Counted from the first letter of the stretch, positions 6,181 to 50,381 are shown. The stretch is DNA of 64,000 bases from Oceanispirochaeta sp. (GCA_963663385.2 CAXXXD010000003.1:640001-704000), one strand, 5' to 3'. Made by a program: numbers and translations. Notes: generated by a model from the letters alone, not told the origin.

Positions 6181-6182
6181 GG

Positions 6183-7208
6183 ATGTTAAAAATGAAGATT
6201 GCCGTTATCTACTCCTCTAAAACCGGAAATACAAAGAAAGTGGCCCGGGCTATAAAAGATGCCCTGCCCGAGACCACAGATCTGATCGAAGCCAAAGATT
6301 TCAAGGGGGGCCATGATTACGATTTCATCTTTATGGGCTACTGGGTTGATAAGGGTACTGCCGATCGGGAAGCTCAGAAGGTGATGTCTCAGATCACCAA
6401 TAAGGAGGTGGCTATCTTCGCCACTCTGGGAGCCTATCCTGAGTCTGATCATGCCAGACAGAGCCTTGTGGGTGCCGCCTGCTGCTTCGGAAAGAACACG
6501 AAGGTTGTGGCCAGCTATATCTGTCAGGGAGCGATCGATCCGAAGATCATTGAAATGATGCGGAAAAACTCAGTCATACCCCATGGAAACTCGGAAGAGA
6601 GTGAAAAGCGCTGGGCCAACGGGGCAAGCCGCCCCGATGAGAACGATCTGAAAAAGGCAGCTGAGTTCGCCGTTAAAGCGATGGAAATGAGGGAGATTTT
6701 TGCTCCCTATAAAGAGAAGATAAAGACTGCCATGAAAGAGGCACTCGCTCAGGATCCGGGAATGCCGGCCATGGCGGCAATGAAATTTGGTGTGAGTGAG
6801 AAGGAAGTTTATGAGAACCTGCCGGAAGGAACGGTGAAATTTGTTGATATATCCAATTTTAAGGAAATCTGGGAAGAGATGGCGAGCTGGGAGAAGGTGC
6901 AATTCTTAAGCGTAAACTCAGGGCTGGTTATGGAAGTCCCGGGCAGACTTTCCCGGGGAAAGGAGGGACACGGCATGTTCAATCTGTCCGACAGGGATGC
7001 CCCCGTTCACGGTCATGTGATAGTCGACAATCTGGATTCCCTGGCCTTCGTATCCATACCTTTTATGGGTCGGGAGAGCCATAACGTGACCTTCTTTGCC
7101 AAGGACGGCAGCGTCGCTTTCGCTCTTTATCTGGGACGCAATGAAAAACGGGAAATCATTCCCGAAGTTAGAGAGTCCTTTCTGAAGCTTAAAGAATCTT
7201 TCTCATAG
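6183..7208 (+). CDS. Fusion of a flavodoxin-like domain (HmuF-like) and a HutX/ChuX heme-binding domain
   Basis: N-half: YSSKTGNTKKVA FMN loop, GYWVDKG, FATLGAYPESDHA. C-half: GVSEKEV, GKEGHGMFNL, HGHV, FVSIPFMGRESH and LYLGRNEKRE, typical of HutX/ChuX. Confidence 0.85.
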   Translation: MLKMKIAVIYSSKTGNTKKVARAIKDALPETTDLIEAKDFKGGHDYDFIFMGYWVDKGTADREAQKVMSQITNKEVAIFATLGAYPESDHARQSLVGAACCFGKNTKVVASYICQGAIDPKIIEMMRKNSVIPHGNSEESEKRWANGASRPDENDLKKAAEFAVKAMEMREIFAPYKEKIKTAMKEALAQDPGMPAMAAMKFGVSEKEVYENLPEGTVKFVDISNFKEIWEEMASWEKVQFLSVNSGLVMEVPGRLSRGKEGHGMFNLSDRDAPVHGHVIVDNLDSLAFVSIPFMGRESHNVTFFAKDGSVAFALYLGRNEKREIIPEVRESFLKLKESFS

Positions 7209-36471: not shown

Positions 36472-37365
36472 GTGAACCGTAAAAAACATCTGTCCTTGAA
36501 AAACGCCGTTGAATCCCTTTACGGCCCCGGGGTAGAGCCCGGAACCGAAAGAAGTGTCGGTGGGGGCTGTATTAACGATACGGGGATTCTGACCCTCAGT
36601 AATGGAGAAAAACTTTTTATCAAGCGGAACGGGAAAGCCCGGCTGGAACTGTTTGAACGGGAGGCTGACGGGCTGGATGCTCTGGGTGCGGTGGAAGGAG
36701 CCCCCCGTGTTCCGGAAGTGATGGCCCTGGGGGTGGACGGGGCGTTTTCTTTTCTGCTGATGGAGTTCCTGCCGTCTTCTTCCCGGAGAAAGGATTTCTG
36801 GGAGTGCTTCGGCCGGGAAATGGCAGTGCTGCACCGGAACGGCCGAAGCGATCTCTGCGGATTCATCCATGATAATCATATAGGCGCCACCCCGCAGATA
36901 AATACGCCTGTATCATCATGGTTTGATTTCTTCAGGATATACCGGATTGAATATCAACTCAGGCTCGCCCGGGACCGGGGACTGGCCGACAGCACCATGG
37001 TACGCGCTGTGAGCCGGACGGCAGAAAAACTGGATGACTACCTTATACCGCCGGATGATAACAGGCCATCCCTGCTTCACGGTGATCTGTGGAACGGGAA
37101 TTTTCTGGAAGGCCCCGAAGGGCGGGCCTGCCTGATCGATCCGGCTGCCCATTTCGGGCACAGAGAGGCTGATCTGGCCATGACAGAACTTTTCGGCGGA
37201 TTTGACAGGTCATTCTACAGCAGCTATAACGAGGCCTGGCCTCTGGAACCGGGCTATGCGGTCCGGCGGGATTTATATAATCTGTATCATATGCTGAACC
37301 ATCTGAATTTGTTTGGTGGGGGATATGCGGGAAGCGTTCAGGCGATTGCTTCCCGCTATGCCTGA
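36472..37365 (+). CDS. Fructosamine/ketosamine kinase family protein
   Basis: GGGCIN, FEREADGL, LLHGDLWNGN, IDPA, READLAMT; AGGAGG RBS before GTG. Confidence 0.92.
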   Translation: MNRKKHLSLKNAVESLYGPGVEPGTERSVGGGCINDTGILTLSNGEKLFIKRNGKARLELFEREADGLDALGAVEGAPRVPEVMALGVDGAFSFLLMEFLPSSSRRKDFWECFGREMAVLHRNGRSDLCGFIHDNHIGATPQINTPVSSWFDFFRIYRIEYQLRLARDRGLADSTMVRAVSRTAEKLDDYLIPPDDNRPSLLHGDLWNGNFLEGPEGRACLIDPAAHFGHREADLAMTELFGGFDRSFYSSYNEAWPLEPGYAVRRDLYNLYHMLNHLNLFGGGYAGSVQAIASRYA

Positions 37366-37373
37366 TTAGGCTG

Positions 37374-38543
37374 TCAGCTGATCAGATTCTTTAATACCCG
37401 TCCTTTGACAATTGTAACCAGCACATTGAACTGTCTGTCAAATACGGTAATATCCGCATCGCTTCCCGGGACAAGGGTTCCCAGTTTGGGGAAGCCCAGA
37501 ATCCGGGCAGGGTTGCTCCCCGCCATCTGAACGGCCTGTTCAATGGGAATCTGCCAGGAGACAAGGTTCTGAATTCCCTTGATCATGGTCAGACAGGATC
37601 CGGCAAAAACTCCGTCTTTCTTTTTAAATACATTTTCATCAAGGATTACCTCTTCATTATTGGCTAAAAGAGGAGCACTGTGCTGTTCCGTAGGCTTCAA
37701 CCCGTCCGTTACCAGTACAACCTTGCTGACCGGTTTATCCCTCATTAAAAGCCGGATAAGCTCCGGATGTACATGTTCTCCATCAGCTATGATTTCACAG
37801 GACATTTCAGGATGAATCATAATGGCGCCCACCGCACCGGGATTCCGGTGGTGAAGACGGCTCATGGCATTGAAAAAGTGGGTGGAGTGAAGTATCCCCG
37901 CCTGCATGCCTTCCACCATGTTCTCGTAGGCCGCATCCGTATGACCGGCCTGCAGGGTTATCCCCTTTTTAAGGCAGTAGAGAGCCAGTTCCCGCATCTT
38001 CTTCAGTTCCGGTGCAACCGTCATATTTGTAATCAGGCCTTCTCCCGCCTGATAAAGGCGTTCCATCAGCTCCATATCAACGGGGCTGCAGCCATCTTTA
38101 TTCTGAGCGCCCAGTCTTTTTTCAGAAATAAAGGGGCCTTCCAGGTGTATTCCCAGTATGGATGCTCCCTTCTCCTGACCTTTAGCTTTAACTATGGCCT
38201 TGATAGCCGGGATCATTTTGTCTTCCGTATTGGAGTATATGGTAGGGCAGAAGGATGTTACACCGTATCCGGCCAGTTTTTCCGACATGCCCAGTATGGA
38301 GTTTTTATCGGCATCCTCCGTACCGTAACCCCCAAAACCATGGATATGGGAATCAATAAACCCCGGAGCTATCCAGGCCCCGCCTACATCATAGACCAGG
38401 GCATCGGCAGAGATTTTTTTTTCGTGAAAACGCTTAAGGCTGATAACATCCCCGATTTCGCCGTTTTCGATATAGATACAGCATTTTTCCTGCTGCAGGT
38501 AACCCGTAATTACGGTACCATTGATCAGCCATATATTACTCAT
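37374..38543 (-). CDS. nagA: N-acetylhexosamine-phosphate deacetylase (NagA/AgaA family)
   Basis: PGFIDSHIHG, HLEGPFI, THFFNAM, IADGEHVHP, LVTD. Confidence 0.88.
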   Translation of the reverse strand: MSNIWLINGTVITGYLQQEKCCIYIENGEIGDVISLKRFHEKKISADALVYDVGGAWIAPGFIDSHIHGFGGYGTEDADKNSILGMSEKLAGYGVTSFCPTIYSNTEDKMIPAIKAIVKAKGQEKGASILGIHLEGPFISEKRLGAQNKDGCSPVDMELMERLYQAGEGLITNMTVAPELKKMRELALYCLKKGITLQAGHTDAAYENMVEGMQAGILHSTHFFNAMSRLHHRNPGAVGAIMIHPEMSCEIIADGEHVHPELIRLLMRDKPVSKVVLVTDGLKPTEQHSAPLLANNEEVILDENVFKKKDGVFAGSCLTMIKGIQNLVSWQIPIEQAVQMAGSNPARILGFPKLGTLVPGSDADITVFDRQFNVLVTIVKGRVLKNLIS

Positions 38544-39987
38544 TAATCAACTCCTCCAGTATGGCAGCCCCATCAGAAGGTTTTACAGAAAAAAGCATCT
38601 TCCCGCCTTCAGGGTAATTCAGGTATTTATTGTAGTACTCTTCCAGCAGAGCCTTGCGGTATGTTTCTCCTTTATCTTTATTGACAAGGTGGACACTGCA
38701 TCCTCCGAATCCGGCTCCCGTCAAACGGCATCCCTCCGCACCGTTCTCATTTCCAATGGTAATCAGTTTATCCAGTTCGGGGCAGCTTATTTCATGATTA
38801 TCCCGGCAGCTGCCGTGGGATTCGTTCATCAGGCGTCCGAAGTCTGTTATCCTGTTTTCCAGGAGGGCGTTTTTAGAATCTTCCACTCTGTTCCATTCGG
38901 TCAATACATGGAAAGCTCTTTTGTAGAGCAGGAAGCCTTCTTCGGGTTCGGGAAAATCCGTTCCGTCTTTGCGGTAACACCACTTCCGGTTCAATTCCTT
39001 TTCGTTTACCTTCAGGATGCGGCAGAGTTCTTCCTTTGAATACCCGTCGGTTTTCAAAACTTCCTGCAGTTTTGTTTTCGCACCTTTTCCGCTCTCATAC
39101 CAGGAACCGGAAAGATCTCCCAGAAAATTTATCGCCGGCTGACCTTTTTCTTCCAGAAAACGGCTTATCAAAGCGGCTGCCAGGCGGCATTCGATGCTCC
39201 TTCGGTTGTATTTATCCATTACCTCCCGGGTTTTGGGGGCTTCCACAGTTGAATGGGCCACCAGTATTTCGAATCTTTCGGGCAGGGGGAAGCTGGCCGT
39301 TTTGAGGGGGGCAAAATCTATCTTCACAGCTTTTCCCGCTTCGCCCAACAGGATGGCCGCCTGATCCATTCCGCCTCCCTGGGTTCCCGTATACCGTTCG
39401 GCCCGGGCCAGAAGGTCGGCCAGATCCTTTTTATCCATCCTGCGATTGTTCACATGAAGGAATACCAGGGCAGTTAATACAACCAGTGCGGATGAAGAGC
39501 TCATCCCTGCCGCCGGAGGGATCTGGCTATGGAACATCAGGTTAAATCCGACAGCTTCTTCCGCAGGAACTACAGTTTCCTCAATCAAACCCTGAACGGC
39601 TGCCTTGATATAGTTCGCCCAGTCTCCCCCCGGATGAGGCTGTATCTGCCGACTCAGAAAGAAATCCCGTTCTCCAAAGGCCGGGTTGAAATCAGCGATA
39701 CGGACTTTGCGGTCGTTCCTGGGGGAAAAAAAACCGATAATATCCCTGTCAACCGCCATAGGGAATACGGGACAGTGATTATAGTCCGTATGTTCTCCTA
39801 TCAGATTAATCCGGCCGGGGGAACGAACGGGCAGGAATTTCTCACTGCCGCTCCATTGGCTGAAACGCTCAAAAATCTGTTTATACCGTTCTTTCTGAGC
39901 GGGTATATCTTCTTCCCGATAGATACGGGACATCCACTCACTCCCTTCGGGGCCGGTCAGGTATTCTGTAATTGTTCGATTATTCAT
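38536..39987 (-). CDS. galK: GHMP galactokinase-family kinase of the long GALK2/Gal1 type (possible GalNAc kinase)
   Basis: PGRINLIGEHTDY, GMSSSSA, GGMDQ, RLTGAGFGG; YNRRSIECRLAA and LYKRAFHV flank a long insertion. Confidence 0.85.
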   Translation of the reverse strand: MNNRTITEYLTGPEGSEWMSRIYREEDIPAQKERYKQIFERFSQWSGSEKFLPVRSPGRINLIGEHTDYNHCPVFPMAVDRDIIGFFSPRNDRKVRIADFNPAFGERDFFLSRQIQPHPGGDWANYIKAAVQGLIEETVVPAEEAVGFNLMFHSQIPPAAGMSSSSALVVLTALVFLHVNNRRMDKKDLADLLARAERYTGTQGGGMDQAAILLGEAGKAVKIDFAPLKTASFPLPERFEILVAHSTVEAPKTREVMDKYNRRSIECRLAAALISRFLEEKGQPAINFLGDLSGSWYESGKGAKTKLQEVLKTDGYSKEELCRILKVNEKELNRKWCYRKDGTDFPEPEEGFLLYKRAFHVLTEWNRVEDSKNALLENRITDFGRLMNESHGSCRDNHEISCPELDKLITIGNENGAEGCRLTGAGFGGCSVHLVNKDKGETYRKALLEEYYNKYLNYPEGGKMLFSVKPSDGAAILEELINE

Positions 39988-42041
39988 TTATTATCCTCCC
40001 AAAGCATGGTTAAGATTCTTTCCGCTTCTCCTTCAAGGCTCATATCAAAGGGGGATATCCCTTTATAAAAATCCCTGAGAACTTCACGGGTATTCTCTTT
40101 CAGTTCTTTTGCTGTTTCCGGGTCTTTCGGCGGTGGGAAAATCCACTCTCCGGCGGCTTCTACGACGCCGATTCCCTCTGATTTGATGTTGTTGCGGTTT
40201 TCGGGGTTGCGATGGTCTGAATTCCTCAGGATAAGAGCCATTTTATAATTTTCCCCATTCTTCCAGAAAAGCAGGTTGAAGGTGTTCTTTTCCGGACACT
40301 TGTCCTTCCAGTTTCTGATAATCCGTGTTCCCTTATTCACCAGGTCTTCTCTGCATTGTCCGGTCAGGCAAAGTACCGGCATGGGGAAGTTCAGCATCTC
40401 TCCGGTAATCCCCCGTTCCCGATGGAGCACTCCCTTCAGGGGGGAGGCATCCATCAGAGGGAGCCTGTGGTCCTTGAATACCTGAAAATGGGAGTGGGAG
40501 AGAATGGAAGCGCCCGCCCAGGCCCGGTCCGAATTGGAACAGATGGTATAACCTGGCATCTTTTTAAGGAGAAGCAGCCCGTCTTCCAGTGCCTCTCTGC
40601 CTATATCCATAGGAGTATGGATCCGGTTTATCAGTACAAAATGACGGGGAGAGAGGGGGAACGGGGTCAGTTGAGCAAAATAGTTCCTGCCGTTTTCCAG
40701 AGGAATATCATAAACCCTGAGATTCTCCTTTCCCCTGGCTCCAGCATTTTCCCGGCAGATAAGGCAGGAGGCTCCCGGCGCATCCGGGGCTTTTACCGCC
40801 TGATACCGGGCCCGTGCGTAGTTTATCTGATAGACCAGGTTGATATCCCTGTCCATATCATAGAGGGTAAAGCGGTCATTGGATTCAAGCTTTTCTCTGG
40901 TGAGATAACCTGACCGGAAGCACCACTTGTAGAGCTCTTCCAGGGCACTGTTCAGACAGTCCCTGTTTTCTATATTTCTCAGATATTCCGAAAGGGTCTT
41001 CTGATCAGCATCGGCTGCAGGAGTCACCCTTTTGGCTGAAGTACTGTCCCGCGGGATTAATTGTCCGGACAAAGGCTGATAGGTCCGGGGGGGCAGGCCG
41101 TCCAGTACGGATCTTATCTCCTGAAGGGCTATCTCTCCCAGATGCTGCCAGGGAAAAGACCATGTTGTTAACCCGGGATGGCAATAGGCCGCTTCCCGGA
41201 TTCCGTCAAACCCTGCTACAGCCATCTCATCAGGAACGGAAATTCCTCTGTCTTCCAGGCAGGACAGTGCTCCCAGTGCTCTCAGATCTGTCGAACAGAT
41301 CAGTACATCCGCATCGATATTCCCGTCCAGCAGCCTGCTGCAGGCGTCATACCCATCCTGTATAGTTCCGTTACACTCGGCAATATTCTCCTGTCCTATC
41401 TCCGGGTATCCCCTGTCAATCAGACTCTGATTAATCAGGGACACCCGGTTTTTCTGAGTTGTTCCGATATAGGCAGGTCTATGAAATCCCCTGGAAACAA
41501 GATGGTTCACAATCCCCCTGAGCCCTCCGGCCAGATCCAGTTCGTAATGGAGAGGGATAACAGGTTTCTCCAGGAGAGCAAGCCGCTCCGGTTCAATACA
41601 GCGAAAACTGATGAATCCATCGAAATCTTTATTAAGATCGGGATTGACAGCTCCTTCTGGAATCATTTCCAGGGAGATATTCATATCCAGGGCATTCTTC
41701 ATAACACCGTTAAGCATTTCCATATGATTGTGCCAGGTATACTCCCAGGTATCGGAACCGGAAAACTCCCTGTTGCTCAGCAGTATTCCCACCTTGCAGT
41801 TTTTCAGACGGATCAGAAAATCTGATGTAAGGAAAGTCCCTTTTCCGGCAGACCGTTCAATAATCCCCTCCCGTACCAGTTCATTCAGGGATGAGCGGAC
41901 CGTTCCACGTCCCACCTGGAATTTTTCCATTATCTCATGTTCAGTGGGCAGCTGGTCTTCCGGTTTAAAATCCCTGACAAACCAGTTCTTCAGGGTCTGG
42001 TATAGTTTATTTCCAATCGTGGTTTCTGTTTCTTTTCCCAT
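39984..42041 (-). CDS. GntR HTH + LacI-type sensor domain + HIT/GalT-like (DUF4922-like) nucleotidyltransferase domain fusion
   Basis: LPTEHEI...VGRGTVR...GKGTF (GntR); VPDEMAVAGFDG, LTT and LIPRDST (LacI sensor); CLIC, PFP..HF and GASILSHSHFQ (HIT-like). Confidence 0.8.
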   Translation of the reverse strand: MGKETETTIGNKLYQTLKNWFVRDFKPEDQLPTEHEIMEKFQVGRGTVRSSLNELVREGIIERSAGKGTFLTSDFLIRLKNCKVGILLSNREFSGSDTWEYTWHNHMEMLNGVMKNALDMNISLEMIPEGAVNPDLNKDFDGFISFRCIEPERLALLEKPVIPLHYELDLAGGLRGIVNHLVSRGFHRPAYIGTTQKNRVSLINQSLIDRGYPEIGQENIAECNGTIQDGYDACSRLLDGNIDADVLICSTDLRALGALSCLEDRGISVPDEMAVAGFDGIREAAYCHPGLTTWSFPWQHLGEIALQEIRSVLDGLPPRTYQPLSGQLIPRDSTSAKRVTPAADADQKTLSEYLRNIENRDCLNSALEELYKWCFRSGYLTREKLESNDRFTLYDMDRDINLVYQINYARARYQAVKAPDAPGASCLICRENAGARGKENLRVYDIPLENGRNYFAQLTPFPLSPRHFVLINRIHTPMDIGREALEDGLLLLKKMPGYTICSNSDRAWAGASILSHSHFQVFKDHRLPLMDASPLKGVLHRERGITGEMLNFPMPVLCLTGQCREDLVNKGTRIIRNWKDKCPEKNTFNLLFWKNGENYKMALILRNSDHRNPENRNNIKSEGIGVVEAAGEWIFPPPKDPETAKELKENTREVLRDFYKGISPFDMSLEGEAERILTMLWEDNK

Positions 42042-42064
42042 TGTATTCTCATAAACTGATTTAA

Positions 42065-42110
42065 TTGTTCGAACAAATAAAATACTATATCAGTTCTTCT
42101 GAGAAATCAA
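42065..42110 (-). promoter_or_regulatory. Promoter with palindromic operator for the regulator-galK-nagA operon
   Basis: TTGATT-N17-TAGTAT (42110-42082); perfect palindrome TTGTTCGAACAA at 42065-42076 at the predicted +1; second copy at 42148-42157. Confidence 0.7.
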
Positions 42111-42158
42111 GGGTTGATCGGCTATTTGACAGACAAATTAATTACTATGTTCGAACAA

Positions 42159-42854
42159 TTAACTGTTAATGAACTGTTCCGCCTGATTGGCTATAAACTC
42201 GTCCAGACCGGAAAGGCGGATGCGTTTAACAACTTCCGTTGTTTTCCGGCAGCCGAATTTCCGATGGATTCCCGTAATATGGGTTTTTACCGTGACAATC
42301 TCGATATTCCTGATGGAAGCTATCTGGTTCTGCTTCTTTCCGGCCAGGAGATAACTTAATATAATGGTTTCTGTATTTGTGAGGGAGGTGACTATTCTCA
42401 TTATCTCCATCATGGCTGATTTGTCTTCCCGGACCTGCTGAAGCTGTCGGCGGATGACCTCGGAAGCGTGGGGATGGATTCTGGACTTACCCTCATAGGC
42501 GTTGCGGACAGCTTCGATTATGTCGGAGAGAGAACTGGTTTTAAGTATGTAGTTTACGGCGCCTGCCCTGAACGCGCTCAAAATCTTGTCTTCCTCCTCG
42601 TGGCAGGTCAGCATAATAGTCGTAATCTCAGGATACTCTTTTGTAACTCTCTGACAGTATTCGATCCCTGCATTGGGGGAATCCATTTCTATATCCAGAA
42701 GGAGAACATTTGTTTCTGTGGACTTCAGCAGTGAGAATAACTCCGCACCATCAGCTGCGGAACCGACAACACTGATACCTGACTCATGATCCAGAAGATT
42801 TGAGTAGATGTTTCTCAATTCTGAAAAGTCTTCAGCCACAATGCATTTAATCAT
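42159..42854 (-). CDS. NarL/LuxR-family response regulator
   Basis: REC domain (AED, LLDIEM, YILK) plus LuxR HTH (LTNTE, TVKTHI). Confidence 0.92.
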   Translation of the reverse strand: MIKCIVAEDFSELRNIYSNLLDHESGISVVGSAADGAELFSLLKSTETNVLLLDIEMDSPNAGIEYCQRVTKEYPEITTIMLTCHEEEDKILSAFRAGAVNYILKTSSLSDIIEAVRNAYEGKSRIHPHASEVIRRQLQQVREDKSAMMEIMRIVTSLTNTETIILSYLLAGKKQNQIASIRNIEIVTVKTHITGIHRKFGCRKTTEVVKRIRLSGLDEFIANQAEQFINS

Positions 42855-44344
42855 TTTTTTCTCTCCGTGGTATGCAGATAAATATTTACAGTTGTCCCGT
42901 TTCCGGCAGTGCTGGCAACTTCAATGCTTCCTCCGAATGCTTCCATTACATTACGACAGTAGGAAAGACCCAGTCCCCAGTTACTGATGGAAGGTTTGGT
43001 TGTAAAGAAGGGATTGAATACCTGTTTCTGTATTTTATCGGGGATGCCGGATCCTGTATCTTTTAAAGAGATTATACAGTAGTTCTGTTTAAAATACTGT
43101 TTGACCCAGATAATTTTCAGGGCGCTTTTTTCAGAGGCTTCAATACTGTTGGAAAGGAGATTCCTGATGACTTCCTGAAAATGGTTCCTGTCAATCATAA
43201 GCATCCCGTATTCACCCTTAAGGTGAAAATCCCAGGCCCTGTATTCGACTCTGTACTCTCTGATAATTTCTTCCAGGAGCCGGTAAAGGTCTTCCATGGT
43301 GTAATTAAGGCTGAGGGTTCCGGTTTTTCGAGTCAGTTTGCCCAGCTGGTCTATGGAATCACTGCAGATCTTTTCAACTCTGAGAGCGGTTTCCCGGATT
43401 TCCTCATCCTTCAGTTTCCCCTGTGAGATTTGTGAAACCAGAAGACGGGCGGCAATGAACTGGTTTTTGATGGAGTGAGAGAAAATTTTCATACCCTGTT
43501 CCGCCGTGTTGACTCTGGTTGAAAAATTGAGTTCCTTTCGCTGTGTGCTCATCTGAAGGATTCTGAAGCGGTAGATTGAGTATGTCAGTACAAGTATGGA
43601 TGCCGAAGCTATTACCAGAATCAGCAGATATACCTCCCGGTTGTAGGGCATGTTGATACTCTGCAGGAAGGCATAGCGGGTATAATAGACACTATGGTTG
43701 GGAAACCAGTAGAAAAGAACCAGGAATACCATATGAATGGGAGCCAGGCTGATAATGGTAAGCATCAGACGGGATTTGTTAACGGGAATTACTTTCCGGT
43801 AATTTCGGAACATAAGGTATATGGAGAGGAGTATGCCGGTTTTAAGGAGAATATTTCCCATCAGGTTCCAGAATTTCAGCAGATTTGTGGTATTTGCATT
43901 CACGGTTCGACCATCGAATGGTGTACGGGGAATGGCAAAAAAAGTCCTGATAAACTCAGGATCAAACAGAATCAGAAAAAGTACACCCAGAAAAAGAATG
44001 CTTCGCTTCTTGCTCCTGATCCGTCTGTCGGGAATCAGGGTTACCGAAAAATAAAGGGCTCCCATGGTGTAAAGAACTGTTCCCAGGTTCATAATCCGGT
44101 ACACATCGAAGAGTTCCAGATCCAGCAGGTAGTTGATCTTCCAGATAATATCCGATAAACCGCTGAACAGATTGTTCTCGGTAAAAGTGGAATAGGCCAG
44201 GTATTCGCTGTAAACAGCCAATCCTCCGCAGCCGATAAGAAAACCGGCAAAAACCAGAAAAAACCAGAAACTCTGGGGATTCCGGAAATTCGTCAGGAGA
44301 ATGGCAATCCCCAGAAGGGTATATATCAGCAGGAACGGAAACAT
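42851..44344 (-). CDS. Multi-TM sensor histidine kinase
   Basis: FSHSIKN H-box, NLLSNS N-box, DTGSGI, FNPFFTTK, GLGL. Confidence 0.92.
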   Translation of the reverse strand: MFPFLLIYTLLGIAILLTNFRNPQSFWFFLVFAGFLIGCGGLAVYSEYLAYSTFTENNLFSGLSDIIWKINYLLDLELFDVYRIMNLGTVLYTMGALYFSVTLIPDRRIRSKKRSILFLGVLFLILFDPEFIRTFFAIPRTPFDGRTVNANTTNLLKFWNLMGNILLKTGILLSIYLMFRNYRKVIPVNKSRLMLTIISLAPIHMVFLVLFYWFPNHSVYYTRYAFLQSINMPYNREVYLLILVIASASILVLTYSIYRFRILQMSTQRKELNFSTRVNTAEQGMKIFSHSIKNQFIAARLLVSQISQGKLKDEEIRETALRVEKICSDSIDQLGKLTRKTGTLSLNYTMEDLYRLLEEIIREYRVEYRAWDFHLKGEYGMLMIDRNHFQEVIRNLLSNSIEASEKSALKIIWVKQYFKQNYCIISLKDTGSGIPDKIQKQVFNPFFTTKPSISNWGLGLSYCRNVMEAFGGSIEVASTAGNGTTVNIYLHTTERKK

Positions 44345-45651
44345 CAGTCCTGGTCTTTCCAGTAACGGACTGATCTCCGCTGCAGTTCATCAATAAACTC
44401 AACGGGAGATATCTCCCCGAAGACAAGGGCGTCATTCAGGGGGTTGAATACTCTGGAAAACCATTCGGGGTAATGGAGGAGAACTCCCCCGTAGGGTATA
44501 TGGAACTGTTCTGCTTCTGTGATATAGGGACGAATATCCTTAAGGGCTTCGGGATAGGGGATATCCTTACGGGCAGAAATGTTCCCGGTTTTTTCTACAA
44601 GGAATCTGCTGTTTTCCCTTCGGATCATATACTGGAGAAACTCTTCGGCGCCTTCTCTGTTGTCTGCTCCCAGCGGAATGGCGCATCCGATCAGATAAGC
44701 CTCCATCTGGAAACGTTTATCCTCTTCCGTCAAATTGGGAAAAGGGAAGTATCCTGCTGTAAATTTCCTGTATTTCTCTGTTTCCGAGGGAATCCAGCTG
44801 CCGCAGAGGATAAAAGCGCTTTCGTTTGAAGCCCACTGTTTCTGGGCAAGGGGGAAAATGCTCCTTTGATAACCGTCCTGAAAAAAAGCGTAGTGCCGGT
44901 CACTCAGGGAAGCCACATAACGGGCCGCCATCAGATAGTCATCTTCCTGCCATGTCTCTCCGCTACGGTCCATTACTGCTTTGATAAAGGCTTCCGGATC
45001 GATTAGACGGCTGAGGAACCAGTAGTAGTAATAAGCGTTATAGTAGGGGATGGAGCCGTCGAGAGCCAGGGGATTGAATCCTTTTATTTTCAGACGAAAG
45101 CAGAGGTCCATGAAAGAGTCCCAGTCCTCCGGGACGGACAGGTCTTTCTCTTCAAAGAGTTGCTTATTATAGAAAAATCCCGAAGTAATCAGTTCGTAGG
45201 GAAAAAAATAGACCCTGTCGCCTATTTTATACAGATCCATGGCCCGCTCATAGAAGATATCTATCAACCTGTTCTGTCCTTCGGGGCCGGGGCTTTTATA
45301 AAAAAGGTCCGTCAGGTCCTCGGCCTGAATCTCTTTCCCTCCCAGAAAGGCGCCATTGAGTTCACTTAAATCCTGATCCACAAGATCCGGAGGATCTTCC
45401 ATCAGTATCCTTCCGCGTATGCTGGTCAGAACTTCCCTTCCTGCGAAAGTGAACTGAATCCTGTATCCTCGATCCTGAAGAAAGCTGTCCCCCAGCTCTT
45501 TCAGGTAAAGAGCCTGGGGCTCTCCTTCGGTCCACATGGAGACGTATTCGATTATACGTTTTTCATCATCCGGAAAACGAGGTGTACAAGAGAGGAATAA
45601 AAAAACTCCTGCCAGAGCAGGAGTCAGGAGAAGCGGGACTCTGCGGTTCAT
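44344..45651 (-). CDS. Extracellular solute-binding lipoprotein, probably a sensor partner of the kinase
   Basis: FLS-C lipobox, GFFYNKQLF, P-x-DWD SBP family 1 motifs; its stop overlaps the kinase start. Confidence 0.8.
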   Translation of the reverse strand: MNRRVPLLLTPALAGVFLFLSCTPRFPDDEKRIIEYVSMWTEGEPQALYLKELGDSFLQDRGYRIQFTFAGREVLTSIRGRILMEDPPDLVDQDLSELNGAFLGGKEIQAEDLTDLFYKSPGPEGQNRLIDIFYERAMDLYKIGDRVYFFPYELITSGFFYNKQLFEEKDLSVPEDWDSFMDLCFRLKIKGFNPLALDGSIPYYNAYYYYWFLSRLIDPEAFIKAVMDRSGETWQEDDYLMAARYVASLSDRHYAFFQDGYQRSIFPLAQKQWASNESAFILCGSWIPSETEKYRKFTAGYFPFPNLTEEDKRFQMEAYLIGCAIPLGADNREGAEEFLQYMIRRENSRFLVEKTGNISARKDIPYPEALKDIRPYITEAEQFHIPYGGVLLHYPEWFSRVFNPLNDALVFGEISPVEFIDELQRRSVRYWKDQD

Positions 45652-45698
45652 CTGGGTATACATGATAGCACAGAGTCCTGCCTGTAGCAAAGGGAAGA

Positions 45699-46541
45699 TC
45701 ACTCTTTGAGAGCGCCGCCTGCCAATCCGGATACAAGCTGTTTCTCAACCAGATAGAAAAGGATCAGTACCGGAAGGATAGCCAGGAAGGAAGCTGTCAT
45801 CAGCAGTTCCCATTCAACGGAAAAGCGGCCGACAAACTGGAACAGCCCGATGGGAAGCGGAGTCTTCCCCTTGGACTGAATGAAAGTCAGGGCAAAGAGG
45901 AATTCATTCCAGGCATAAATAAAGGTATATATGGTTGTTGTCACTATCCCCGGTGCAGCTATGGGCAGCAATACCCTTATCATGGCGCCGAAACGGGTAC
46001 AGCCGTCTATGCGGGCCGCCTCTTCAATTCCCTTGGGGATGGCGGCAAAATAACCGTTCAGCATCCAGATGGTAAAGGGAATGGTAAAAACCGCATTGGA
46101 CAGTATCAGACTGAAGTAGGTATCGATGATTCTGATGGATACGGCGATTTTAAAGAGGCTGATTACGACAATTACCGGAGAGAACATCTGTGTTACAAGA
46201 AAAGCGTACAATATGGCTTTTCTTCCCTTGAAACGCAGACGGGCAACAGCATAACCGGCTGGGATGCTGACCACTGTATTCAGCACAACCGCACCCAGGG
46301 CAATAATCAGGCTGCTTTTAAAGTATACGCTCAGAGGGAGTACAGCCCAGACATCCTTGAAATTCTGAAGCCGGATCTGCTTGGGCAGCCAATAGGTGGG
46401 GATGCTGTATATCTCATTGGGAGATTTCAGCATGGATACGATCATTATGGCAAAGGGAAAAAGCATGACAGCCAGCAGAAAAATTACAGCCGTATAGACA
46501 AACGATCTGTTTAGAAGGAATTTCCTTTTAGTGGTAACCAT
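45699..46541 (-). CDS. Carbohydrate ABC transporter permease (MalG-like)
   Basis: IEEAARIDG EAA loop and AWNEF; start placed at MVTTKR. Confidence 0.93.
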   Translation of the reverse strand: MVTTKRKFLLNRSFVYTAVIFLLAVMLFPFAIMIVSMLKSPNEIYSIPTYWLPKQIRLQNFKDVWAVLPLSVYFKSSLIIALGAVVLNTVVSIPAGYAVARLRFKGRKAILYAFLVTQMFSPVIVVISLFKIAVSIRIIDTYFSLILSNAVFTIPFTIWMLNGYFAAIPKGIEEAARIDGCTRFGAMIRVLLPIAAPGIVTTTIYTFIYAWNEFLFALTFIQSKGKTPLPIGLFQFVGRFSVEWELLMTASFLAILPVLILFYLVEKQLVSGLAGGALKE

Positions 46542-47443
46542 TATTCTTCCTCCCTTGCAAAATAGAATTTCGCATATACCATGCTGAAAAGGGAGAGGAT
46601 CAGGAACGTGATTACAGACAGTACAGCCGCATTCTGCCACTTAAGCCATTCGAAGCTGTTTTTGTAGATATAGGTAATCAGGATATCCGTTGATCCGGCG
46701 GGTCCGCCCTTGGTCAGGATATAAATCGTATTGAAGTCATTGAAAGTCCATAAGCCCGACAGCAGGGTGGCAATCATCAGAATCTCCCGGATGCCGGGGA
46801 TCGTGACATTTGTAAATTTCCGTCCCCAGCTGGCACCATCCATTTCGGCGGCTTCGTAGAGGGATTCGGGAATCGCCTGCATACCCGCAAGAAAAACCAG
46901 AGCCATAAAAGGCACGCCCAGCCAGACATCCGCCCACAGGGTGGCAAATAGGGCTGAAGCCGTTTCTCCCAGCCAGACCGGAGGTTTCGCCCATAAATGC
47001 AGGGATTTAAGGGTGTGGTTCAGCAAACCGAATTCATGGTGATAAACCCAGCGCCACAGCATAATGCTTATGGGTACAGAGGAGGCCCAGGGCGTTATAA
47101 AGAGCATCCGGGCAACTTTCTTCCCGGCAAACGGCACATTAAGAAGAAGAGCGATGATCATCCCGATAACGGTTTTCAGCAACACCGCCGAGATCGTCCA
47201 CAGGATTGTTCTCAGGATAACAATCCATGTCTCTCCGTTGGAGAGTATTTTGATATAATTGGCAAGACCTACAAAAGCTTTCAGATTGGAAAGTTTATCG
47301 GTTTTGAAAAAGGACATGATAAAAACATAAACAATGGGATAAACCATAAACAGAAGAAGCAGCAGCACCGACGGAGCCAGCAGCAGAAAAGCCAGCTTTG
47401 TTTCTTCTTTATGATTTTTTTTACTCAAACTTGTTTCCGGCAC
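46541..47443 (-). CDS. Carbohydrate ABC transporter permease (MalF-like)
   Basis: LYEAAEMDGA EAA loop and TKGGP. Confidence 0.93.
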   Translation of the reverse strand: MPETSLSKKNHKEETKLAFLLLAPSVLLLLLFMVYPIVYVFIMSFFKTDKLSNLKAFVGLANYIKILSNGETWIVILRTILWTISAVLLKTVIGMIIALLLNVPFAGKKVARMLFITPWASSVPISIMLWRWVYHHEFGLLNHTLKSLHLWAKPPVWLGETASALFATLWADVWLGVPFMALVFLAGMQAIPESLYEAAEMDGASWGRKFTNVTIPGIREILMIATLLSGLWTFNDFNTIYILTKGGPAGSTDILITYIYKNSFEWLKWQNAAVLSVITFLILSLFSMVYAKFYFAREEE

Positions 47444-47467
47444 GTTATTTCTCCAGAAAATTGATAG

Positions 47468-47490
47468 GGAGAGCCGGTTTCCCGGCTCCC
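47468..47490 (-). promoter_or_regulatory. Intercistronic stem-loop after the SBP gene (probable mRNA stabiliser)
   Basis: GGGAGAGCCGG-TTTC-CCGGCTCCC hairpin between SBP and permease. Confidence 0.5.
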
Positions 47491-47511
47491 GATTAAAACT
47501 CAGGAATCAGA

Positions 47512-48756
47512 TTATTTAATATAGTCCGCGCGGGCTTCGTCAATTTTGGCGGCAGCTTCGTCCAGGGCTTCCCGGGCACTCATTTTTTCCAGGAATACTT
47601 TCTGTACGGCGTCCCAGATAATGTCGGAAGCTTCTGTCCAGCCGCTTACAAGGGGCCAGCCCCTGGCGTTCAGGTTGGCTTCAGCCATGGCAGCATACAT
47701 GGGTGTCTGAAACTGGGGGAGTCCGGCCGCACTGATTGTGACAGGAGGAAATCCGATAGCTTCGTCAAGAGCGGCTTTCCATTCATCCTGATAGAAGAAA
47801 TCCAGGAATTTTCCAACACCGTCATGGCTCTTTCCGTCTTTATAGATAACGATAGAGTCGGTAATAATAAGAGGAGTGGATTTGTTTCCTTTGAAGCCTG
47901 GGATCTGACCATATTTGATGGGCCAGTCGGCATTGACTTTCTTGTGTTCCGAATCAGCCCAGGCACCGATCATTACATAGGCTGCCTTTCCGCCGAAAAA
48001 TACGGGATGGGACTGTTTTCTATCCTGAGAAATGTAACCGTCCTGTACAACCTTATCATCGTTTGCCAGCATGGCCATATATTCCAGAGCTTTAACACCG
48101 GCTGCAGAGTTAACAGTGCTTCTGCCGTTTGCATCGAAGTATTCACCGCCGGCGGCATAGAAATAGTAGCAGAAGTCGGTCAGCTCAGTGTGTTTTCCAC
48201 CGGGCATGATCAGGCCGTAAGCGCCGTCTTTGTTGGCTTCGATTGCCAGATCGCGGAGTTCTTCCATTGTTGCAGGTGCTTTTGAAGCAAGGTTTCCGTT
48301 GTATGCAAGAAAGCGGGCGCCTGCAGCGAAGGGAATACCCATCAGTTTGCCGTCCACCTTAGCTTCCATGGCACCGGGTGCAATGTTATCAAGGGTTTCT
48401 TTGGCAATATAATCGCCGGGTTCTACAATAGCATCCAGTTCCATAAAGTCCAGGATCCATCTTGTTCCGATAACTGATGCATCGGGCGGGAGTTTACCGG
48501 CCAGAGCCGTTGTCAGTTTGTCAAGCAGATTGTCCCAGTCTACCATCACGATATTCAGATCATATTCCGGATAAGCTTCGTTATAGGCTTCTTCCAGGTT
48601 CGTCATGTAACCGCCGCGCATACCGTCGTAATCGGCCATCCAGAATGTGACTCCTTCCTTACCGGGAGAAGCTTCCTGCTGTCCGGCAGCGAACAGGGTC
48701 AGAGGAAGTAATGCCAGTACGAATAACATTAAAGATAAAACAGCTATTTTTTTCAT
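47512..48756 (-). CDS. Sugar ABC transporter substrate-binding protein
   Basis: MKKIAVL signal with FAAGQQE spirochaete-type N-terminus; SBP family 1 features; AGGGGG RBS. Confidence 0.9.
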   Translation of the reverse strand: MKKIAVLSLMLFVLALLPLTLFAAGQQEASPGKEGVTFWMADYDGMRGGYMTNLEEAYNEAYPEYDLNIVMVDWDNLLDKLTTALAGKLPPDASVIGTRWILDFMELDAIVEPGDYIAKETLDNIAPGAMEAKVDGKLMGIPFAAGARFLAYNGNLASKAPATMEELRDLAIEANKDGAYGLIMPGGKHTELTDFCYYFYAAGGEYFDANGRSTVNSAAGVKALEYMAMLANDDKVVQDGYISQDRKQSHPVFFGGKAAYVMIGAWADSEHKKVNADWPIKYGQIPGFKGNKSTPLIITDSIVIYKDGKSHDGVGKFLDFFYQDEWKAALDEAIGFPPVTISAAGLPQFQTPMYAAMAEANLNARGWPLVSGWTEASDIIWDAVQKVFLEKMSAREALDEAAAKIDEARADYIK

Positions 48757-48857
48757 ATAGCCCCCTTTTAAGTATTTATTTAATACTAAGTCTGAATAAT
48801 CAAATCCATAAGTCAAAATTTTTATCATACGTAAATGGGTATTTATAAGGAGGATAT

Positions 48858-48888
48858 AAAAAAAGGTAGGAGATTTCCTCCTACCTTT
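48858..48888 (-). terminator. Intrinsic terminator of trkH
   Basis: AAAGGTAGGAG-ATTTC-CTCCTACCTTT with an A tract on the left. Confidence 0.8.
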
Positions 48889-48923
48889 GCTTTCGGGAAC
48901 ATACGGGCAGATCTGCAGCCCTG

Positions 48924-50381
48924 TTACTGGCGCTTCCAGAACCAGGGGGTAAGGATTACCAGTACTGTATAGATTTCCAGCCGGCCCATCATCATAGCCA
49001 GGCTGAGGAACCATTTGATACCGTCCTGGAAAAACGAGTAATTCATGGTTGGACCTACCAGGTTAAAACCGGGGCCGATATTTCCTACGGTAACAAGGGC
49101 CGTAGAGAAGGAGGACAGGATATCATATCCTCCTGCCGCCACCACGACAGTCGTCGTCAGCAGGCTGACCATATAAAGGAACACGAATCCCGTAATCACA
49201 CTGATTATATCTTTTCGTACAACCATCCTGTTCAGGCGGAGATGAAAAACACCGCGCGGATGGATGAGGTGCTTCAATTCCCTGGAGGCCAGTTTGAACA
49301 GCGTAACAATACGAACAACTTTCATACCGCCTCCGGTCGATCCGGCACAGCCTCCGATGAACATCATCAGAAAAAGGATTGTCTTGCTGAAGTTGGGCCA
49401 AACATCATAATCCGCGGTGGCATACCCTGTAGTCGTAATAATGGAAGCGACCTGAAATGCCGCATACCGGAGGCTTTCCCAGAATCCCTTGAATACACTG
49501 TTCTTCATAAGGGAAAAGGTTATGGCCAGGGATGCCGCAGCAAAAATTCCCAGATAGGCTTTCATTTCCGTATCGTCAGCCAGATCCCTGAAACGGCCGG
49601 TCAGCAGTTTGAAGTAGAGGGCAAAGTTCATACCCGCCATAACCATGAAAATGGTAATAACCCAGTGAATCCAGGGGGAGTCATAAAACCCGACACTTGT
49701 ATTCCTGGGGGAGAATCCACCGGTTGCCATTGTTCCGAACGTATGAGTCAGGGCATCGAAAAGGTTCATTCCCCCCATCATCAGGAGGATTGTTTCCACA
49801 ATCGTCAAACCCAGATAGATAAACCACAGGATTTTTGCCGTGTGAGTAATCTTCGGGGTAATCTTGTCAACCGAAGGACCGGGGGCTTCTGCTTTCAGAA
49901 GCTGCATGCCCCCGATTCCCAGCAGGGGAAATATGGCAACCGTCAGAACAACGATTCCCATTCCTCCCAGCCAGTGGGTCAGGCTGCGCCAGAACAGCAT
50001 GGAATAGGGCAGGCCTTCAATCGCCTTAAGTATGGATGCTCCGGTTGTTGTAAAACCGGACATGGTTTCAAAGTAGGCATCCGTATAGGAGGGAATTGTG
50101 CCTGAGATGTAAAAGGGAACCGCACCAAGCGCAGAAGCGGCAATCCAGCTGAGGGTTACCAGCATAAACCCTTCCCGTGGGGTTAATACTTTATCTCTGT
50201 TGTTTCTGGTTAATACGTAGATGACGGCTGAAACAGGGAGGAGCATAAGGATCGGTTCGATAAAGGCCTTGAAACTGTCCATTTCTCCGTAAAAAAGCGC
50301 AATCCCGGCCGGAATAAGCATAAATGCCGCAATTATAAGCAGCAGAATGGTCAGAACGTGAAAAATCAGTTTGTATTTCAT
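48924..50381 (-). CDS. trkH: Trk potassium uptake membrane protein
   Basis: SGFTTTGA, WLGGMGI, ATGGF, GGCAGSTGGG, GRLE. Confidence 0.95.
   Translation of the reverse strand: MKYKLIFHVLTILLLIIAAFMLIPAGIALFYGEMDSFKAFIEPILMLLPVSAVIYVLTRNNRDKVLTPREGFMLVTLSWIAASALGAVPFYISGTIPSYTDAYFETMSGFTTTGASILKAIEGLPYSMLFWRSLTHWLGGMGIVVLTVAIFPLLGIGGMQLLKAEAPGPSVDKITPKITHTAKILWFIYLGLTIVETILLMMGGMNLFDALTHTFGTMATGGFSPRNTSVGFYDSPWIHWVITIFMVMAGMNFALYFKLLTGRFRDLADDTEMKAYLGIFAAASLAITFSLMKNSVFKGFWESLRYAAFQVASIITTTGYATADYDVWPNFSKTILFLMMFIGGCAGSTGGGMKVVRIVTLFKLASRELKHLIHPRGVFHLRLNRMVVRKDIISVITGFVFLYMVSLLTTTVVVAAGGYDILSSFSTALVTVGNIGPGFNLVGPTMNYSFFQDGIKWFLSLAMMMGRLEIYTVLVILTPWFWKRQ

Follow-up and report, generated by a model that had tools for sequence, protein, structure and literature searches.

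Trigger enzymes are enzymes whose catalytic or ligand state controls gene expression, and several of them, such as PutA, BirA, and NadR, have a built-in DNA-binding domain. The yeast regulator Gal3 acts by protein-protein contact and not within a DNA-binding chain. In the GalT/Apa branch of the HIT superfamily, the HxHxQ motif carries out its chemistry via a nucleotidyl-histidine, and the bifidobacterial lacto-N-biose/galacto-N-biose (LNB/GNB) route combines a kinase of the NahK type, a transferase (LnpC/GalT2, a type-2 GalT), and an epimerase. Among repressors, excerpts of the AraR literature (PMC1950556) describe a GntR-type head joined to a LacI/GalR-type body as the AraR architecture, and report that strong repression by AraR needs two in-phase boxes and a DNA loop. 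Here, we describe a gene that joins an AraR-type repressor and a GalT-like enzyme domain in one chain, at 39984..42041 on the minus strand of a 64,000-nucleotide (nt) stretch of Oceanispirochaeta sp. (GCA_963663385.2 CAXXXD010000003.1:640001-704000), hereafter the window, from whose first letter positions are counted. The genome is 5.3 Mb in size (labelled G000), and the protein encoded by this gene is referred to as P0001.

In our best explanation, to which we assign a probability of roughly 0.7 as a whole, P0001 is a bifunctional protein: a repressor of the AraR type that regulates its own operon, bears an active hexosamine-1-phosphate nucleotidyltransferase, and is encoded at the head of the genes for a kinase and nagA. 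This prediction is drawn from sequence comparisons and structural models.

Results

A single gene encodes a three-part fused protein

The open reading frame (ORF) starts with ATG, contains no internal stops, and encodes 685 amino acids (aa); the ORF, its translation, domain searches, and ten further fused homologs all support an AraR-type repressor joined to a GalT-like HIT-branch enzyme domain. The N-terminal part consists of a GntR-type winged helix-turn-helix (residues 12-70, 41832..42008, minus strand as for all parts of the gene; PF00392, E 1.8e-15, 56.7 bits versus a cut-off of 27), followed by a LacI/GalR-type effector domain of the periplasmic-binding-protein fold (about residues 80-334, 41040..41804; Peripla_BP_3 PF13377 at residues 178-334, E 1.8e-20, 74.1 bits versus 26.5), in which strands and helices alternate from residue 82 of the full-length model. 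A linker of 12 aa (residues 335-346, 41004..41039; KRVTPAADADQK) has no secondary structure in the model and varies in length among the aligned homologs. The remaining 339 residues (347-685, 39987..41003) form the enzyme domain, whose two-HIT-repeat fold is supported by an AlphaFold (AF2) model, structure matches, and 598 relatives. Within this domain lie CLIC (residues 426-429, 40755..40766), presumed to provide zinc ligands, and HSHFQ (residues 516-520, 40482..40496), the HxHxQ catalytic motif with the presumed nucleophile His518, which ends the string GASILSHSHFQ at residues 510-520. DUF4922 (PF16269) matches residues 419-521 (E 1.2e-7, 32.2 bits versus a gathering cut-off of 23.6), and all three Pfam domains (GntR, LacI-type, and DUF4922) exceed their gathering cut-offs. 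An earlier note, made from the sequence alone, had described this 685-aa ORF as a GntR helix-turn-helix, a LacI-type domain, and an enzyme domain of about 340 aa; the ORF and the Pfam and NCBIfam searches agree with that description, and the linker, the CxxC, and the GASILSHSHFQ string lie where it had placed them.

Two sequencing runs, belonging to two studies, yielded contigs (of 51,216 nt, depth 12.3, and of 13,642 nt, depth 35.7) that cover 39900-42200 and show no deviating letter and no gap there, so that the junction is crossed cleanly; either or both of these contigs may be the source of this assembly, and they are therefore not fully independent. Clean spanning contigs from two studies nevertheless indicate that the junction did not arise from an isolated mistake in assembly. 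Two further runs cover only small portions of the window, and no RNA data set is among the sequencing runs listed as containing the sequence. In addition, a 687-aa protein on another contig (P0167) is 94% identical to P0001 in both halves. Given these contigs and the ten other fused proteins on other contigs, an artefact of assembly or annotation that hides two real genes is highly improbable, and we conclude that 39984-42041 is a genuine single gene for one fused protein.

Sequence and predicted fold place the enzyme domain in the GalT/Apa branch

Among 1.84 billion representative proteins, the enzyme domain has 598 relatives at E <= 0.001, 48 of them at E <= 1e-30. Closest to it are fusions of 650-705 aa and proteins of about 320-375 aa that stand alone (the best is 50% identical), and type-2 GalTs (about 490 aa) rank next, at about E 1e-20. 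NCBIfam gives partial matches to type-2 GalT models (E 1e-28 to 1e-25), the best of which, NF003629 (E 1.2e-28), aligns residues 350-637 with profile positions 99-416 of 508. The equivalog test for type-2 GalT (TIGR01239/PRK05270) failed, with 91.4 bits versus 650.15 over profile positions 105-408 of 489. DUF4922 appears at E <= 0.001 in 26 of the 38 relatives scanned against Pfam (24 of the 26 reach the gathering cut-off), and the close free-standing relatives among these 38 contain no other Pfam family. In excerpts of the literature that names it, DUF4922 belongs to GDP-L-galactose phosphorylase of plants and GDPGP1 of animals.

To describe residue conservation, we aligned 40 sequences, six of them type-2 GalTs (domain numbering plus 344 gives the number in the full protein). 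H467, N503, H516, H518, Q520, P528, R606, K620, E622, G625, and G631 are invariant in all 40, and C426 and C429 are at least 90% conserved; the CxxC stands 87-100 residues before HxHxQ in most listed relatives. By analogy with Escherichia coli GalT, which stands outside this alignment, C426, C429, H467, and H516 would be zinc ligands, H518 the nucleophile, and Q520 the essential glutamine.

The AF2 model of the enzyme domain has a predicted local distance difference test score (pLDDT) of 95.5 and a predicted template modelling score (pTM) of 0.93. Its best structural neighbour is the yeast Ap4A phosphorylase Apa2 (Z 20.6, root-mean-square deviation 3.1 Å, 268 residues aligned, 14% identity), followed by a DUF4931 protein, uridylyltransferases, ADP-glucose phosphorylase (Z 10.1), human GALT (9.2), and E. 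coli GalT (8.3-8.7), with a range of 8.3-10.3 for GalT-type structures. Fold comparison predicts a single chain with two HIT-like half-domains, as in the GalT branch (branch III). A sequence search of the PDB with the C-terminal domain (C-domain) alone gave no match at E <= 1, and a search with the 40-sequence profile gave chance matches to LacI-family chains at E 1.3, so that no solved GalT is reachable by sequence in these searches. Altogether, sequence and model assign the enzyme domain to the GalT/Apa branch of the HIT superfamily, in agreement with the GalT/nucleoside diphosphate-sugar (NDP-sugar) phosphorylase branch named in the earlier note. By sequence, it belongs to a short (about 340 aa) sister family of type-2 GalT that lies outside the GalT equivalogs; in the C-domain tree described below, this short family forms its own clade apart from the six type-2 GalTs (support 100).

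No second copy (paralog) of the enzyme domain was found in the genome. Elsewhere, the enzyme family is seen in other fusions: with a GDSL lipase (P0037), in four relatives with N-terminal extensions in which Pfam finds no family, and inside the 4943-aa protein P0071 (not scanned against Pfam); type-2 GalTs occur fused to galactokinase or aldose 1-epimerase. The relatives with such other fusions are P0037, P0046, P0050, P0055, P0060, P0071, P0112, P0132, P0072, P0123, P0143, and P0166.

The fusion recurs with live and dead enzyme domains

Including that of the window, we found 11 fused proteins (P0001, P0167, P0006-P0012, P0022, and P0023), which are 39-94% identical. Two fused proteins lie on contigs of Spirochaetaceae metagenome-assembled genomes (MAGs) from a species-genome scan with two peptide patterns, which gave 2 further fused loci and by which members can be missed. 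Among 61 related genomes, the full-length fusion was found in G000 only and a degenerate fusion in G008. The free-standing enzyme of about 350 aa is commoner than the fused form; in other relatives, the enzyme and an AraR-like regulator are separate and unlinked, and an AraC-type regulator is often found beside the enzyme. The case that the earlier note named as refuting the fusion, homologs that are always two genes and a stop or frameshift at the junction, does not hold: fused forms exist in other genomes and contigs cross the junction cleanly, although free-standing enzyme genes are more frequent.

Both CxxC and HxHxQ are kept in 8 of the 11 fused proteins, and both are lost in the other three (P0006, P0011, and P0012). 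For pairs with intact motifs, the N-terminal half (N-half) and the C-domain have diverged to similar extents, with identities of 41.7% and 40.7% for P0001-P0007, 94.0% and 94.1% for P0001-P0167, and 70.0% and 63.2% for another pair. The dead forms compare with P0001 at 58-75% identity in the N-half versus 19-42% in the C-domain. The same pattern is visible in the end branches of the trees, which for the C-domain and the N-half, respectively, measure 0.30 and 0.18 in P0001, 1.04 and 0.21 in P0006, 5.12 and 0.26 in P0011, and 4.54 and 0.33 in P0012; the C-domain end branches of free-standing enzymes (0.16-0.6) are comparable to that of P0001. As judged from the alignment and from the divergence of the halves, the catalytic signature is intact and under purifying selection, and the window's enzyme domain shows the constraint expected of a working enzyme. 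We therefore predict that it is catalytically competent.

In the relatives with a dead enzyme, about 260-310 residues of the domain remain in frame. The locus L030 (7751-9622) of G008, a genome of the same genus, encodes a fusion with a decayed enzyme domain that has neither CxxC nor HxHxQ, and the decayed stretch contains 0 stops in 269 codons versus 3-9 in the other five frames. This dead fusion is followed directly by nagA and a gene for a solute-binding protein, with no kinase between, and a search of the G008 genome with the window's kinase as query did not recover this kinase at E <= 1e-30. Catalysis and kinase are thus lost together at L030, the single locus from which this link is drawn. 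That a dead domain is kept open in frame hints at a second role.

Trees of both halves are consistent with one old fusion

The N-half tree was built by a careful method from 20 rows, from which P0167 was left out as a near-copy. In this tree, the 10 fused N-halves form one clade (support 88/88; 84% of bootstrap trees), to which 4 free-standing regulators do not belong. In the C-domain tree, the 10 fused C-domains fall into one 16-row clade (SH-like approximate likelihood ratio test, SH-aLRT, 90) with the same internal grouping as in the N-half tree, and six free-standing enzymes, including those of G009 and G042, nest among them. Since the trees of both halves are congruent, a single old fusion fits, and the history that best suits these sequences is a fusion that arose once, long ago, and from which some descendants later lost the regulator part.

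Free-standing regulators that are 38-39% identical to the N-half occur in G025 (L032) and G009 (L033). They adjoin an ATP-binding cassette (ABC) sugar transporter and a phosphodiester glycosidase of the NAGPA family, which is another N-acetylhexosamine-related theme.

The fused gene heads an operon with a GALK2-like kinase and nagA

The fused gene and a kinase gene overlap in ATGA, which holds the stop codon of the former and the start codon of the latter; the end of the kinase gene overlaps the start of nagA by 8 nt, and a Shine-Dalgarno-like GGAGG precedes the starts of the kinase gene and nagA. The kinase (38536..39987, minus strand, 483 aa) is a GALK2-like anomeric sugar kinase of the GHMP family (TIGR00131, 270.8 bits versus a cut-off of 226.65). 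Its best PDB match is human N-acetylgalactosamine kinase (2a2c, E 7.8e-75, residues 31-479), with Gal3 and galactokinases at 4.1e-50 or weaker. The earlier note had proposed translational coupling to galK and nagA: the gene overlaps agree with the coupling, whereas the label galK does not hold, as the kinase is by sequence closer to N-acetylgalactosamine kinase than to galactokinase. The third gene, nagA (37374..38543, minus strand, 389 aa), encodes an N-acetylglucosamine-6-phosphate deacetylase (TIGR00221, 388 bits versus 225.65) and is the sole NagA-family match above the cut-off genome-wide. As the only nagA, its presence here probably means that N-acetylglucosamine-6-phosphate deacetylation throughout the cell is under the control of the fused regulator.

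Directly downstream of the intact enzyme, fused or free, all eight loci compared (the window, L011, L012, and L025-L029) carry an ortholog of this long kinase. In six other loci, it is 43-56% identical to the window's kinase, versus 22-28% over comparable length to the genome's own galK. Of 11 genomes of the genus, 3 yield a match to the kinase (E <= 1e-30), and these same 3 are the ones with a match to the enzyme (E <= 1e-5). At L012 of a Spirochaetaceae MAG (5024-6400), the kinase is split into two ORFs of 92 and 360 aa, which reflects either a frameshift or a mistake in the assembly.

In the window's genus, nagA follows as the third gene. Outside the genus, in L011, L012, L028, and L029, the enzyme-kinase pair stands beside genes for DegT aminotransferases, with nagA in none of the four; GFO/IDH/MocA oxidoreductases accompany DegT in L011, L012, and L029, a PIG-L deacetylase is found in L011 only, and L028 has DegT alone. 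DegT-type neighbours without nagA suggest that, in these four loci, the NDP-sugar is modified further.

Elsewhere in the G000 genome are a canonical galK (C2:818042), a class-I galT, galE, and a nagB-like gene. At C2:1696825-1699070, the class-I galT adjoins a third, divergent GHMP kinase (an open frame of 426 aa) that is distinct from the canonical galK.

Two candidate operators lie upstream of the fused gene

The first 340 residues of P0001 match the DNA-binding domains of YvoA (PDB 4u0y, E 1.4e-7) and Bacillus subtilis AraR (4egy, E 6e-7), and the effector domain matches LacI-family effector domains in the PDB (best E 2.1e-18) and carries many residues that are invariant in the alignment. 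On sequence grounds, residues 1-334 are thus an AraR-type repressor.

The 117-base-pair (bp) gap 5' of the fused gene (42042-42158) holds, within it or at its edge, two near-identical palindromes, which we propose as candidate operators. O1 (42063..42078; ATTTGTTCGAACAATT) ends 21 nt before the start codon, and O2 (42145..42160; AATTGTTCGAACATAG), the centre of which lies 82 bp upstream of that of O1, overlaps the stop codon of a response-regulator gene. Compared with the AraR box consensus as given in excerpts of PMC1950556, O1 is identical at 13 of 16 positions, and the matches include purine-5, T6, G9, A11, and pyrimidine-12, which are described there as the most constant or critical positions. 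The 12-mer core of O1 (TTGTTCGAACAA) has 1 perfect copy in the 5.3-Mb genome and 5 copies with one mismatch, O2 among them. A box with a TTCGAA core occurs within about 115 nt upstream of all four fused genes compared (the window, L011, L012, and L030) and upstream of none of five free-standing genes (2 enzyme and 3 regulator genes). Between the two palindromes, a possible promoter, TTGATT-17 nt-TAGTAT (42082..42110, minus strand), was recognised by eye; it ends 3 nt before O1 and is weak, with 8 of 12 positions matching the consensus. We infer that the repressor half binds O1 and O2 and represses its own operon, a putative function that we base on these sequence features.

Neighbouring genes

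Upstream on the same strand, 42159..49014 encodes a LuxR-type response regulator, a multi-pass membrane histidine kinase, a solute-binding protein, two ABC permeases, and a second solute-binding protein (Pfam). These genes may form an uptake and sensing system for the same sugar, a link made by position. Downstream, a gene of the fructosamine-kinase family (36472-37365) converges on nagA, and a hairpin at 37362-37385 could terminate transcription on both strands.

Discussion

In the pathway that we propose, the kinase would make an N-acetylhexosamine 1-phosphate, and the enzyme domain would take this sugar 1-phosphate and exchange a nucleotidyl group through a covalent nucleoside monophosphate adduct of His518 (His518-NMP), yielding an NDP-sugar. 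The nucleotidyl group could come from a UDP-sugar, as in a GalT-type transfer, or the domain could run the reaction of an NDP-sugar phosphorylase backwards; the sugar would most likely be N-acetylgalactosamine or another N-acetylhexosamine. Together with GalE, a mutase, and nagA, these steps would make up a Leloir-like N-acetylhexosamine route, in which the carbon ends at N-acetylglucosamine-6-phosphate and NagA. The repressor half would hold O1, beside the likely promoter, and O2, and repress its own operon until a sugar effector releases it. We favour an N-acetylhexosamine theme because GALK2 is the best solved match of the kinase, the only nagA of the genome is located here, and GalE and NagB-like genes are present elsewhere in the genome.

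Several observations weigh against this explanation. The enzyme domain scores about 91-100 bits against curated GalT cut-offs of 628-721, and roughly the first 100 and the last 90 positions of type-2 GalT are absent from it; with scores so far below the cut-offs and both ends missing, the reaction may differ from that of GalT. The closest fold is that of a phosphorylase (Apa2), and the Pfam family is that of GDP-L-galactose phosphorylase in the excerpted literature mentioned above. Among the fused proteins, the closest relative of P0001 below 90% identity is the motif-less P0006, and the lack of motifs in 3 of 11 indicates that catalysis is dispensable for keeping the fusion. On the side of the operators, the 11-mer core is as frequent in the genome as its reversed control, so that the case for O1 and O2 rests on position, pairing, and conservation and not on rarity. 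The four other one-mismatch sites were considered as operators and set aside as probable chance matches, two being inside ORFs and two intergenic beside unrelated genes (a toastrack-domain gene and a gene for an extracytoplasmic function sigma factor). A promoter/terminator scan lists no promoter in 42042-42158, TTGATT-TAGTAT being below its threshold. Finally, the C-domain tree was built by a quick method (56 rows, two of them very long), and the free-standing enzymes nested within it mean that later fission and several fusions are not separable with confidence.

Granted that P0001 is one protein, the question is whether catalysis and regulation communicate. The repressor and the enzyme could be independent on one chain, with only their co-expression fixed, following the loss of a stop codon between neighbouring genes; we regard this as a real possibility, somewhat short of even. 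Every domain has free-standing and apparently functional relatives, the linker is short, unstructured, and variable, and the full form is rare (G000 alone among the 61 related genomes). Such a passive arrangement leaves unexplained, however, why the dead domain stays in frame in three relatives and why proteins as far apart as about 40% identity still keep the fusion. Alternatively, P0001 could be a true trigger enzyme, in which the ligand, nucleotidylation state, or dimerisation of the active domain alters DNA binding or looping, so that the promoter reads the flux through kinase and transferase and not only the sugar concentration. This reading, which we hold as possible yet doubtful, would refine our best explanation rather than exclude it. 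In its favour, the fusion has been kept at 39-42% identity between two subclades with its halves diverging in step, and the retention of dead domains in frame suggests a role beyond catalysis, a point that is qualified by the loss of the kinase in G008. LacI carries a tetramerisation helix at the position where the enzyme domain sits here, and the enzyme domain is predicted to form a symmetric homodimer via a strand at residues 388-396. The prediction scores 0.59 versus 0.00 for the best control, with runs that agree in at least 95% of contacts and a partner pLDDT of at least 87; a mark of 0.59 is reached by 20 of 30 proteins solved as one-chain pairs and by 1 of 23 solved as single chains, counts that hold only roughly here because our own alignment was used. 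The spacing of the two candidate operators (82 bp) is also of interest in light of the in-phase boxes and looping reported for AraR (excerpts of PMC1950556). Conversely, the dimer score may reflect likeness to solved GalT dimers, the repressor half has a LacI-type effector domain of its own and could sense a sugar unaided, and the full-length model (pTM 0.54) shows no fixed arrangement of the domains. The fast decay of the dead domains (end branches of 4.5-5.1 versus 0.26-0.33 for their N-halves) equally fits a plain loss of function, and most relatives manage with separate genes and a nearby AraC-type regulator.

The three clearly non-catalytic fused relatives also raise the question of whether the C-domain of P0001 itself is a pseudoenzyme, that is, a sensor that binds a sugar phosphate or an NDP-sugar as a second effector. 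Enzyme-fold sensor domains are known on GntR-type regulators, as excerpts of PMC5320631 describe for the MocR subfamily. We nonetheless consider this improbable: all invariant residues of the family are present in P0001, its C-domain end branch is as short as those of free-standing enzymes (0.30), no second copy that could work with the adjacent kinase was found in the genome, and in the one dead-domain locus seen, loss of the motifs accompanies loss of the kinase. A more specific proposal joins the live and dead forms. The GalT-like domain could be both a flux sensor and a looping module: by dimerising, it would tie together two repressor dimers bound at the operators 82 bp apart, and binding of the kinase product, or nucleotidylation, would loosen the loop; transcription would then follow flux, and in kinase-less relatives catalysis would have been dropped and the domain kept as a purely regulatory module. 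We rate this proposal as unlikely. If true, it would be a bacterial counterpart of the path from Gal1 to Gal3, on a single DNA-binding chain.

Enzyme-repressor fusions as a kind, AraR-type repressors, and HIT-branch nucleotidyltransferases are already known. The literature searched at the level of titles and abstracts, with subscription journals outside its coverage, describes no HIT/GalT-type enzyme in a repressor fusion, and at the same level we found no description of a module of a short GalT-like enzyme and a GALK2-like kinase. A term search of a 2025 review of amino-sugar use (PMC12118421), of which excerpts were available, returned no passage on such a Leloir-like route. What is new here is the three-part architecture, the pair of an uncharacterised short GalT-like enzyme and a GALK2-like kinase, and the occurrence in nature of free forms, of fusions with a live enzyme, and of fusions with a dead one. 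Few enzymes also act as transcription factors, and the majority of these came to light through genetics; P0001 was found from its sequence. The fusion could let an enzyme report pathway flux to its own promoter, and if it is passive, the result is a modest improvement in annotation. Free-standing enzyme, free-standing regulator, live fusion, and dead fusion serve as natural controls, some of them within one genus, and thereby make the question of whether an enzyme-repressor fusion creates flux sensing testable with few constructs. Independently of that question, the locus defines an uncharacterised bacterial module, a GALK2-like anomeric kinase with a short GalT-like enzyme bearing DUF4922, which probably activates or catabolises N-acetylhexosamines by a Leloir-like route.

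Among known systems, B. subtilis AraR resembles the repressor half in its GntR-type winged helix and LacI/GalR-type effector domain, as well as in its operators, which according to excerpts of PMC1950556 are 16-bp palindromes of the ATTTGT..ACAAAT type (13 of 16 positions shared with O1), with two boxes at one promoter. The similarity is modest (E 6e-7 for the DNA-binding domain of AraR); AraR ends after the effector domain, whereas the fused protein continues for a further 339 residues with their own fold, and the effector here is probably an amino sugar or its phosphate instead of arabinose. Type-2 GalT (TIGR01239/PRK05270) is the closest curated sequence family of the enzyme half, shares the CxxC, His, Asn, and HxHxQ columns with it, and likewise acts after an anomeric sugar kinase; unlike type-2 GalT, the fused domain covers only about positions 100-415 of profiles of about 490-510 and falls into its own clade. 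Apa2 (PDB 4i5t and 4i5w) is the best structural match, with Z 20.6 over 268 residues, at 14% identity, and GDP-L-galactose and GDP-D-glucose phosphorylases share DUF4922, according to the excerpted literature. Apa2 and the DUF4922 phosphorylases split a nucleotide compound with phosphate, whereas the gene context here points to the making or exchange of an NDP-sugar.

As a pathway, the LNB/GNB route is the best analogue, although the kinase here is of the GHMP family (GALK2-like) and not of the NahK type. Yeast Gal1 and Gal3 are an analogy only, in that live (P0001) and dead (P0006, P0011, and P0012) forms occur in one clade, without the DNA-binding chain that is present here. As for the combination of functions, PutA, BirA, NadR, and regulators of the MocR/GabR type likewise unite, in one chain, a DNA-binding domain with a part of the controlled pathway that is an enzyme or has an enzyme fold (an aminotransferase fold in MocR/GabR). 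These proteins have no separate effector domain between the two parts, whereas in P0001 a complete two-domain repressor precedes the enzyme.

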